From NCBI RefSeq assembly GCF_003334355.1, contig NZ_QOWP01000022.1: 64,000 nucleotides of DNA, one strand, 5' to 3'. The notes under the pieces are model-generated. The model was not told the origin of the DNA, ran no database searches, and was given only the letters and a program-made list of their open reading frames with translations. This stretch comes from Escherichia coli (lineage in GTDB: Bacteria > Pseudomonadota > Gammaproteobacteria > Enterobacterales > Enterobacteriaceae). Positions 56,412 through 59,040 of the stretch are shown here, piece by piece. A program made the position numbers and the translations under genes. Numbering within the stretch: position 1 is the first letter of the stretch; every line of letters begins with the position of its first letter.

Positions 56412-58946
56412 TTAATTACTACCAAACATATCTTTAATCCAACCGGCTACACCGTCGCTGTCTTTCTGCTCTTGCTGAGCAGGTTGCTGTTGCGGCTGTT
56501 GCTGCGGCTGAGAAGACTGATCAAACGGATTGCTTGACGGCTGCTGCTGCATCTCACTCTGCTGGCACAGCGATTGCGGATCGCTGGTCCAGACCGGCAA
56601 GACACGCATGCCACCGCTGCAAACAAAGTTGCCGTCGTAGTCCACGCCCATATCTGCAATATCTTCTGGCGGAACAAGATTCAGCGGTGTTGGCGTCTGG
56701 TTAGCCAGATAACGCTGATAAATCGACATTGCCCCGCTGGCTCCATACAGTTTGGTCGGCTGGTTGTTATCACGGCCTACCCAGGTGATGGTCACCGTGC
56801 TGCCGTCAATGCCCGCAAACCAGGTATCTACGTTATTGTTAGTAGTCCCTGTTTTCCCTGCCAGATGCAGGTTCGGGTATTTCGCCCCAAGCTGACGACC
56901 CGTACCGCGTTGTACAACCTGCTGCATGGTCCATAGTGTCAGATACGCCGCCTGCGCCGGAACAGCGCGTTCCGCCTGCGGGAAGCTCTGATACAGCACT
57001 TTGCCATCTTCCGCGATTACCGAACGCAGCGCAGAAAGCGGTGCACGGTTACCACCGCTGGCGATGGTCTGGAATGCCTGCGCCACTTCGATTGGCGTTA
57101 AGTTCAACGCCCCCAGCAGCATCGCCGGAACCGGATGCAGCTGATCTTTCGGCACGCCCAGTTTGATCCAGGTCTCCGTAACCGCAGGCAGCCCCAGTGC
57201 CATCCCCAGATTTACCGTCGGCACGTTCATCGAACGGGTCAACGCATCCACCAGCATCACTCTGCCACTTTCGCTATAACGACGATCATCGTTCTGCGGT
57301 GACCAGACCTGGCCATTCGGCTGACGCAGCGCGATTGGCGCATCCGCAATCCACGTGTTCAGGCGATAGATTTTCGGCTGGCTTAAGGCAGTCAGATAAG
57401 TCGCTGGTTTTGCAAGGGAACCAATCGAACGACGCGCCTGCATCGCACGATTGTAGCCCGCAAACTGCGGCTCAGAACCTCCGACCATCGCACGAACTTC
57501 ACCACTAAAGCGGTCGACGACCACAATCGCGGTTTCCAGATCGCTCAGCTTACGCTGTTTCTTCAGTGCCGGAATGCCTTCCACGGCGGCTTTTTCTGCC
57601 GCGTCCTGGGCCACCGAGTCAAAGGTAGTGAAGATCTTCACGCCGGACAGATCTTTTACCTTATCGCCTAATTTCGCCTGCAACTCCTGACGCACCAGTT
57701 GCATAAAGGCTGGCTGTGGAGAGATTACCCCACCGCGCGGCTGTACGCCCAGAGGACGCGCGCTGAGCATTTCATACAGTTCACCATCGATAATCTGCTG
57801 TTGTTGTAGCAAACGCAGCACCAGATTACGTCGCTCCAGCGCCAGTTTCGGGTTACGCCACGGGTTGTAGATGGACGCCCCTTTCACCATGCCAACTAAC
57901 AGCGCCTGCTGGTCAAGGCTCAATTCTTCTACCGGGCGACCAAAGTAGTACAGGCTCGCCAGCGGGAAGCCACGAATTTCGTTGTCGCCGCTCTGACCGA
58001 GATACACCTCATTCATATACAGCTCAAGAATGCGATCTTTGCTGTAACGCGCATCCATGATCAACGCCATATAGGCTTCGTTCGCTTTACGCCAGTAAGA
58101 GCGCTCGCTGGAGAGGAACAGGTTTTTCACCAGCTGTTGCGTCAGCGTACTCGCACCCTGCACCGTGCGACCTGCGGTCAGGTTTGCCAGCACCGCACGT
58201 CCGATGGAGTAGAGGCTGATGCCGTCATGCTCGTAAAAATGACGGTCTTCTGTCGCCAGCAAAGTATCCACCAGCAAATCAGGGAAACCACTGCGCGGCA
58301 CAAACAGACGTTGTTCACCGTTTGGCGAGGAGATCATGGTGATCAGGCGCGGATCAAGACGGAAGAAGCCGAACTGACGGTTGTTCTCCATATTGACGAT
58401 GGTCGCCAGATGATCGCCATCAAAGGTCAAACGCGCACGCACCTGCCCTTCTTTGCTGTCCGGGAAATCAAACGGACGGCGGATCATCTCAATGCTGTTA
58501 GCCTGCACGGTAAATTCGCCAGGACGGGTCATTTTCGACACCTGACGATACTGGGTCGCCTCCAGCAGCTTCACCATCTCGTTCTTGCTGATGGTCATGT
58601 CTGGCTCAAGATTGACCATTCGGCCATAAACTGCCGCAGGCAGTTGCCAGACCTTGCCATCAATACGGCTACGAATTTTTTGATCGAGATAAACGCCGTA
58701 AATGGCGATCAGCACGGCAAAAACGATAGCCAGTTTTAGCAGTAGCCATAGCCAGCCGCGTTTGCCACGAGGCTTACGCCCTTTGCCTTTGCCCTTACCT
58801 TTGCGCGGCATCGGTTCTTCATCCTCATAGTCATCATAATCGTCGTAATCATCGTCATCTTCGTAACGACGACGGCTTACCTTTTGTTTGACCGGACGCG
58901 TCGGTTTCCCTTTGCGTCCAATTGGCTCGCGGTCATTCCCGGCCAT
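56412..58946 (-). CDS. mrcB: Penicillin-binding protein 1B (bifunctional glycosyltransferase/transpeptidase)
   Basis: ORF track 56412-58961 trimmed to the ATG at 58946 ([10 protein letters not shown]..., 844 aa); transglycosylase motif [10 protein letters not shown]; transpeptidase SxxK (SIGSLAKP). Confidence 0.95.
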
Positions 58947-59040
58947 GCTTTTTCTCCGCAATATTCAGGCGCAAAAGCCCGATTTTCTGTTCTTCTGTTA
59001 CAAGACAGAAGAAGATATCTCTCAAAATTTGTGCTCGATC

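Follow-up and report, generated by a model that had tools for sequence, protein, structure and literature searches.

A single mrcB mRNA of Escherichia coli is, with near certainty, translated from two in-frame starts to give the alpha and gamma forms of PBP1b; the N-terminus peculiar to alpha recruits the enzyme to the division site, and the TTG codon from which a mechanical open reading frame (ORF) call begins is an artefact. The alpha/gamma dual start of mrcB is already known, annotated and experimentally characterised. Analysis of a 64-kb stretch of E. coli DNA (the window) contributes the identity of the locus with that of strain K-12, the contexts of the two starts, their conservation and a synonymous constraint upstream of the second; that both starts are used, and that the alpha tail has a role of its own, is known from the literature. 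In the proposed scheme the ATG at codon 1 (ATG1, position 58946), preceded by the Shine-Dalgarno (SD) motif GGAG, would direct synthesis of PBP1b alpha, 844 residues long, and the ATG at codon 46 (ATG46, position 58811), preceded by a GAGGA that is built from the Glu-Asp codons of an acidic run, would direct synthesis of PBP1b gamma. The latter would retain only a basic stretch ahead of the membrane helix, and the periplasmic glycosyltransferase and transpeptidase parts would be common to the two forms. Following the literature, the alpha-only N-terminus would bring PBP1b to the division site, probably via FtsA, and gamma would be dispersed.

Identity of the locus and its start codons

The minus-strand region under study is the 5' end of E. 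coli mrcB (ponB), the gene for PBP1b. The coding sequence of the alpha form (56412..58946, minus strand; 844 aa plus stop) is defined by the ORF, the RefSeq start and the NCBIfam PBP1b equivalogs, NF007061 matching residues 1-843 with 1731.8 bits against a cut-off of 1120 and TIGR02071 scoring 1245 bits against 717.75. Gene order is hrpB-mrcB-fhuA, the flanking ORFs matching the HrpB and FhuA equivalogs. A 561-nt query spanning the hrpB-mrcB junction (window 58600..59160) finds matches in 5426 of 5426 complete E. coli genomes; RefSeq labels hrpB and mrcB on genomes so matched, and in an E. coli strain that is identical over the query the RefSeq mrcB start corresponds to window position 58946.

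The window protein is identical to K-12 MrcB at 840 of 844 residues, including all of residues 1-387, and the K-12 and window DNAs are the same from -89 to about +205 relative to the alpha ATG. K-12 PBP1b (b0149; NP_414691.1, YP_010051172.1) shares with the window its start codons, SD motifs and gene neighbours; the four substitutions that separate the two proteins (Q388G, D392E, I782V and G804S) all lie beyond the N-terminal region, and none bears on the N-terminal finding. RefSeq gives K-12 b0149 two coding sequences, MrcB from 164730 and PBP-1Bgamma from 164865, 45 codons (135 nt) apart. The comparison with annotated PBP1b isoforms that was proposed in the original prediction, made from the window sequence, thus comes out in favour of its reading that alpha and gamma arise by alternative initiation, as do the K-12 identity and the published profiling peaks described below.

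From the upstream in-frame stop (TGA, 58967..58965) to the membrane helix there are three in-frame start-like codons, namely TTG at codon -5 (58961), ATG1 (58946) and ATG46 (58811); a GTG at codon 78, also in frame, lies inside the membrane helix, and the only in-frame ATGs of the cytoplasmic tail are those at codons 1 and 46. Ahead of the alpha start, at a spacing of 7 nt, lies GGAG (58954..58957, minus strand), the anti-SD duplex of which has -6.6 kcal/mol. The gamma start, the in-frame internal ATG of Met46 (58811..58809, minus strand), is preceded by the SD-like GAGGA (58822..58826, minus strand) of codons E41-D42 in the acidic run, with a 10-nt spacer and a duplex of -6.1 kcal/mol, and opens a nested coding sequence of 799 aa (56412..58811, minus strand), the K-12 equivalent of which is annotated as PBP-1Bgamma and which has a published Ribo-RET peak. 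As a side observation, GAGGA could be partly a by-product of the acidic codons.

The mechanical ORF runs from 58961 (56412..58961, minus strand; 849 aa) and begins with TTG. This TTG (58959..58961, minus strand), five codons upstream of ATG1, is not a real start and is an artefact of mechanical ORF calling, in which the first ATG, GTG or TTG after the TGA is rendered as M. The prediction had described this start, that of MRRKSM, as an ATG, which is wrong, and had placed in-frame Met codons on both sides of the main start; the downstream one exists as Met46, while the upstream "M" is the TTG.

Taken by themselves, the two ATG contexts say little about the internal start. Within the 64-kb window an anti-SD match as good as that of ATG46 precedes ~9% of internal in-frame ATGs, so that sequence alone is no proof that ATG46 is used, and the occurrence of an in-frame Met within the first 60 codons is by itself not beyond chance. 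Predicted local RNA accessibility places the two start regions at the 79th and 90th percentiles, moderately above background and not discriminating. The evidence for the use of ATG46 is therefore that of conservation and of published experiments, not of sequence alone.

The charged cytoplasmic tail

The cytoplasmic tail of alpha is 63 residues long and has four parts: the N-terminal peptide (residues 1-15), a basic segment, an acidic segment (residues 29-44) and a basic juxtamembrane segment. Net charge alternates accordingly, from +8 over residues 1-27 to -13 over residues 28-45 and +10 over residues 46-64. The alpha-specific N-terminal peptide (58902..58946, minus strand) has been published as an FtsA-directed peptide for division-site recruitment, and the window carries the described motif, R6 and P8-I9-G10-R11, within the conserved first ~14 residues.

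The acidic D/E/Y low-complexity run (58815..58862, minus strand; residues 29-44) has 13 D/E and a net charge of -13. Its presence at the MrcB N-terminus had been correctly predicted: with 12 D/E in 15 residues it includes the most extreme 15-residue stretch among the 45 ORFs of at least 250 aa in the 64-kb window, and runs this acidic are expected at about 0.001 per proteome of 1.35 million residues, given the local D+E frequency. The basic KG juxtamembrane stretch (58755..58805, minus strand; residues about 46/48-64, 10 K/R) is likewise the most extreme of the window among the same ORFs, with 10 K/R in 16 residues, but its rarity is low, ~14 stretches with at least 9 K/R in 16 being expected per proteome in the same test as for the acidic run. 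The two runs had been described as immediately adjacent; both are there, but P-M-P-R sits between them and adjacency is not strict.

The basic stretch was also expected ahead of a transmembrane helix, and this is where it lies, the stretch (+10) being on the N-terminal side of the helix (58686..58754, minus strand; about residues 64-87), in which the most hydrophobic 19-mer, residues 64-82, has a mean Kyte-Doolittle value of 2.46. The interval given in the prediction, 58800-58961, ends at codon 49; it covers the starts but leaves most of the basic stretch and the helix outside. The arrangement of a cytoplasmic tail, a single membrane helix and periplasmic domains fits membership of PBP1b. Solved PBP1b structures (3VMA, 3FWL, 5FGZ) align from residues 53-58 onward, so that the alpha-specific tail and most of the KG stretch are structurally unseen; the transmembrane segment is included in the crystallised constructs.

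Within E. coli the tail varies little. A 236-nt query over it finds matches in 5425 of 5426 genomes, 5096 of them at an identity of at least 99%, 318 at 95-99% and 11 at 90-95%. Four sampled low-identity matches have in-frame indels in the D run (DDDD vs DDD), in the KG repeat (KGKGKG) or in both, and all four keep the two ATGs and the two SD motifs unaltered. These indels are ordinary repeat slippage in a disordered spacer; the length of the acidic run varies among genera as well.

Use and conservation of the two starts

The initiation-inhibitor ribosome profiling that had been proposed as a check has already been published for both E. coli and Salmonella. Ribo-RET, which uses retapamulin, gives well-defined and specific peaks at the known internal start of mrcB in E. 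coli BW25113 and BL21, and infB, clpB and mrcB served there as positive controls, being the three genes with previously characterised internal starts (10.1101/520783). Like mrcB, infB (the IF2 isoforms) and clpB (long and short ClpB) yield nested proteins from an in-frame internal start with an SD-like element in the coding sequence; their proteins are unrelated to MrcB, the forms of which differ by a short disordered cytoplasmic tail and not by a folded domain. A second profiling paper names MrcB as a classic two-isoform protein. In Salmonella, mrcB has Ribo-RET signal at both starts and peptide support for the long form, and the published MrcB proteoform sequences begin MAGNDRE (PMC11005335). 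Salmonella Typhimurium MrcB resembles that of E. coli in its succession of conserved peptide, basic, acidic and basic segments with an internal ATG before the basic juxtamembrane stretch, but its acidic and KG runs are shorter, which gives an alpha-specific extension of 42 residues as against 45 in E. coli (PMC11005335). At the Salmonella arizonae locus (L013) the ATG and GAGGA are placed as in E. coli mrcB.

A function for the alpha-specific segment comes from a 2025 preprint, published in 2026, in which only alpha PBP1b shows midcell enrichment and higher division-site activity, R6E abolishes the midcell enrichment of alpha, M46L yields alpha-only PBP1b, and the alpha N-terminal peptide is reported as conserved in Enterobacteriaceae (10.1101/2025.04.02.646830; PMC13423804). 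The peptide, with R6 critical, probably acts through FtsA, and a direct alpha-FtsA interaction needs further validation according to the authors themselves (10.1101/2025.04.02.646830).

Conservation was followed in 80 Enterobacteriaceae loci, obtained in one scan of species-representative genomes and all matching from residue 1, which with the window make 81 sequences; these are not phylogenetically independent, and counts over them are inflated by shared ancestry. ATG1 is present in 81 of 81, as is a GGAG at a spacing of 6-8 nt, and residues 1-3 and 5-12 of MrcB are invariant throughout, the window included. At the position of Met46 a start codon is kept in 75 of the 81, as ATG in 68 and as GTG in 7 (Klebsiella, 2; Silvania, 2; Leclercia, 2; Kosakonia cowanii). 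That all seven Val codons are GTG is weak evidence, as no other Val codon can be reached from ATG by a single mutation. The six sequences with a non-start codon are those of Kluyvera and a related Enterobacteriaceae genome (CGT/CGC, 3), Pseudescherichia vulneris (GCG), Phytobacter (GCG) and Superficieibacter (CCA), and gamma is thus not indispensable across the family.

The SD-like motif accompanies the start codon. It is present in 72 of the 75 sequences that have a start at position 46, and among the six that do not it is absent or very weak in four by duplex energy and absent in five by motif match. The Glu codon that builds GAGGA, at -5 from Met46, is GAG in 64 sequences and GAA in 5, as against GAA 51 : GAG 9 for the Glu at -3 and GAA 49 : GAG 16 for that at -2. 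Such a GAG bias at -5 is the pattern that selection on an internal ribosome-binding site would produce. On these alignments the gamma start is widespread, not universal, in Enterobacteriaceae, and its SD motif appears to be held by synonymous constraint.

Of the other accounts of this region, initiation at the upstream TTG (58961), with an 849-aa protein that starts MRRKSM, has a probability close to nil. The TTG is in frame, five codons upstream of ATG1, and no stop intervenes in E. coli; among the relatives TTG is present in 65 of 81 sequences. However, the TTG has no SD, the upstream anti-SD match being only -2.5 kcal/mol, and it lies one base upstream of the GGAG of ATG1, within a conserved TTGCGGAG block that holds this SD. 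Seven of the 81 sequences have TAG at the position and six others a stop at -2, so that 13 carry an in-frame stop, and there is no conservation of the TTG as part of a coding sequence. The RefSeq coding sequence begins at ATG1 and the published proteoforms begin there too. The prediction had indeed held that this upstream start was probably unused, a view which the missing SD, the stops in relatives and the RefSeq start at 58946 all favour.

It is also highly improbable that only ATG1 is used and that the shorter forms of PBP1b come from proteolytic trimming of the disordered, dibasic-rich tail. Dibasic sites of the kind cut by OmpT do occur in the tail, at R11-K12 and R25-R26-R27, and the beta form of PBP1b is said to be an OmpT cleavage artefact of alpha, as was reportedly found by Henderson et al. 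in 1994; the cut that gives beta could plausibly fall at the RRR of residues 25-27. A literature search on alpha/beta/gamma/OmpT returned nothing relevant. Trimming as the only source of shorter forms is contradicted by the placement of initiating ribosomes at the internal site in Ribo-RET, by the use of M46L to obtain alpha-only enzyme, by the annotation of the gamma coding sequence in RefSeq, and by the synonymous GAG bias that keeps an SD-like motif 10 nt upstream of ATG46. A different possibility accepts initiation at Met46 as real but regards it as incidental, gamma being a tolerated by-product of an acidic run that happens to encode GAGGA and having no selected function. This we consider unlikely. 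The frequency of SD-like matches before internal ATGs in the window (9%), the loss of the start codon in 6 of 81 sequences and the fact that a specific role has been reported for alpha only (10.1101/2025.04.02.646830) speak for it; the retention of the start codon in 75 of 81, the 64 : 5 preference for GAG exactly at the GAGGA codon, with GAA prevailing at the second and third codons after it, and the loss of the SD-like motif along with the start codon in four of six by duplex energy speak against it, all three being counts inflated by shared ancestry. Dual initiation from ATG1 and ATG46 on one mRNA, with a recruiting alpha N-terminus, is the reading that is retained.

The conserved leader and the roles of the isoforms

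The ~80 nt upstream of mrcB (58947..59025, minus strand), studied by an alignment of the 81 sequences, covariation counts and a fold, show striking conservation throughout the family. They contain an invariant block TTGAGAGAT[A/T]TCTTCTT, then a putative hairpin 1 (59013..58990, minus strand), the E. coli form of which is TTCTTCTGT-cttgta-ACAGAAGAA, and downstream of this a small predicted hairpin 2 (58982..58965, minus strand). Lineages in which the gamma start has been lost still have this leader. The four inner pairs of hairpin 1 covary, both sides being altered in 10, 17, 30 and 29 of the 81 sequences; paired cells make up 94.9%, as compared with no more than 59% after sliding of the partners, and double-change cells number 88, where shuffles give 25.9 +/- 5.1. 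The great excess of U-G over C-A cells points to RNA structure on the sense strand of mrcB. Support for the candidate hairpin comes solely from covariation, as the single-sequence fold of the leader is not better than that of shuffles (z = -0.78). The fold also suggests a possible helix of UUGCGG (-15..-10) with CCGCGA (+14..+19) that would bracket the alpha SD and start. Synonymous change is almost absent from codons 3-7, R6 being CGC in 81 of 81 and R11 using four codons.

Rfam has no family for the leader at the gathering threshold over the whole window, or at E<=10 over 58700..59200. Sub-threshold Rfam microRNA matches all fall on a GC-rich palindrome at 59045..59130 and were dismissed as chance matches to a long hairpin; the palindrome has been catalogued as a repeated hairpin/G-quadruplex element lying between hrpB and mrcB (PMC5100583), and about a third of E. 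coli genomes lack it or differ in it. A scan of 58700..59400 for sigma-70 promoters and intrinsic terminators found none. Genomic SELEX lists a constitutive sigma-70 promoter here, TTGAGA-17-TGTAAC (PMC3946193); this promoter (59025..59020 and 59002..58997) was not adopted, its -10 element being in the variable loop and arm of hairpin 1 and not conserved in other genera. Nothing of relevance came out of a search of the literature for a connection of mrcB with an sRNA or UTR. It is conceivable, and at present quite doubtful, that the leader might tune initiation at ATG1 independently of the GAGGA and ATG46, giving a regulated alpha:gamma ratio that would shift PBP1b between division-site and dispersed pools.

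At mrcB the window is the K-12 sequence, and it adds nothing new on the roles of the isoforms. What it does add is modest: a check of a textbook case, the correction of the TTG start, a comparative picture of the gamma start and an uncharacterised conserved leader. The enzyme concerned, PBP1b, is a major cell-wall synthase and an antibiotic target, the isoforms of which have recently been assigned distinct roles, that of alpha being to fortify the division site.

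The mrcB leader and an overlapping proposed promoter

The leader of mrcB, the minus-strand gene for PBP1b, is conserved across the window and 80 other Enterobacteriaceae loci from species-representative genomes (58947..59025, minus strand; 81 sequences in all). An invariant block, TTGAGAGAT[A/T]TCTTCTT, lies upstream of a minus-strand hairpin at 59013..58990 whose four inner pairs covary among the 81 sequences, and a second small hairpin follows on its 3' side at 58982..58965 of the same strand. Because U-G cells far outnumber C-A cells in the covarying hairpin, the pattern of substitution suggests a structure in the RNA of the sense strand. 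The leader has no match in Rfam; gathering-level matches over the whole window, all on the minus strand, are the CssrA sRNA (32882..32991, 136.6 bits), the t44 RNA (33830..33916, 83.5 bits) and the HtrA 5'-UTR thermometer (42787..42832, 77 bits).

A promoter has been proposed for the same segment. In a published genomic-SELEX table (PMC3946193), the spacer between hrpB and mrcB is assigned a constitutive RpoD promoter, TTGAGA-17-TGTAAC, which falls at 58997..59025 on the minus strand. Its -35 element occupies the same place as the invariant block. Its -10 element overlaps the covarying hairpin, in the loop and the 3' arm, and is conserved only within Escherichia. A sigma-70 consensus scan of 58700..59400 found no promoter.

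Synonymous variation is nearly nil in mrcB codons 3-7 (58927..58961, minus strand) among the 81 sequences; the R6 codon is CGC in every one, and R11 is encoded by four different codons. CCGCGA (+14..+19) of the coding sequence could pair with UUGCGG (-15..-10), and the helix would enclose the alpha start codon (ATG1, 58946) and its Shine-Dalgarno (SD) sequence, GGAG. All six pairs are intact in 60 of the 81, and double compensatory changes in this helix were found in none of them.

Variation in the spacer and in the PBP1b tails

Also between hrpB and mrcB is a GC-rich palindromic element of 85 nt that contains GGG tracts, GGGAGAGGGTTAGGGTGAGGG (59045..59130). It matches two entries, HPG1 no. 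6 and HPG2 no. 5, in a catalogue of "HPGQ" hairpin/G-quadruplex repeats (PMC5100583). Since at least 80% of a 561-nt query around the mrcB 5' end (58600..59160) is covered in only 3540 of 5426 E. coli genomes, the element is missing or altered in about one third of them. Further copies occur at other sites, in up to 6 places per genome.

The N-terminal low-complexity tail of PBP1b (58755..58862, minus strand) differs in length among E. coli strains through in-frame changes (compared loci L003-L006): the Asp run can be one residue shorter (DDDD to DDD), the KG repeat one unit shorter, or both. Such changes affect at most ~6% of genomes, the share (329 of 5425) with less than 99% identity to a 236-nt query of the tail. 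The Gln/Pro-rich C-terminal tail (56412..56520, minus strand) is variable in length too: a strain whose sequence agrees fully with the window across the 561-nt query (locus L088) has a 3-residue in-frame deletion there, giving a PBP1b of 841 aa vs 844 in the window. In the acidic run, GAT and GAC codons create a series of out-of-frame ATGs (G-ATG-A...; 58736..58858, minus strand) that open a 40-codon +1-frame ORF, with no indication of use.

Start codons of mrcB across genera

Not all genera keep the ATG of the mrcB gamma start (Met46, 58811; variant loci L023, L054, L065, L067, L069, L071, L072; L068, L070, L073, L077, L078, L086). Klebsiella, Silvania, Leclercia and Kosakonia cowanii have GTG in its place. 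Kluyvera and a related genome, Pseudescherichia vulneris, Superficieibacter and Phytobacter have no start codon there (CGY, GCG or CCA), and most of these sequences are without its SD-like motif, GAGGA, as well.

At the alpha start, 33 of the 81 sequences, every one from a genus other than Escherichia, have an additional in-frame ATG 6 codons (18 nt) 5' of the true start (loci L013, L020-L022, L033-L052 and others), in the context TGA-ATG-TTG-CGG-AGA-AAA-AGC-ATG or TGT-ATG-.... This ATG stands immediately 5' of the TTGCGGAG block, within which the SD of ATG1 lies, and gene callers could mis-start mrcB there.
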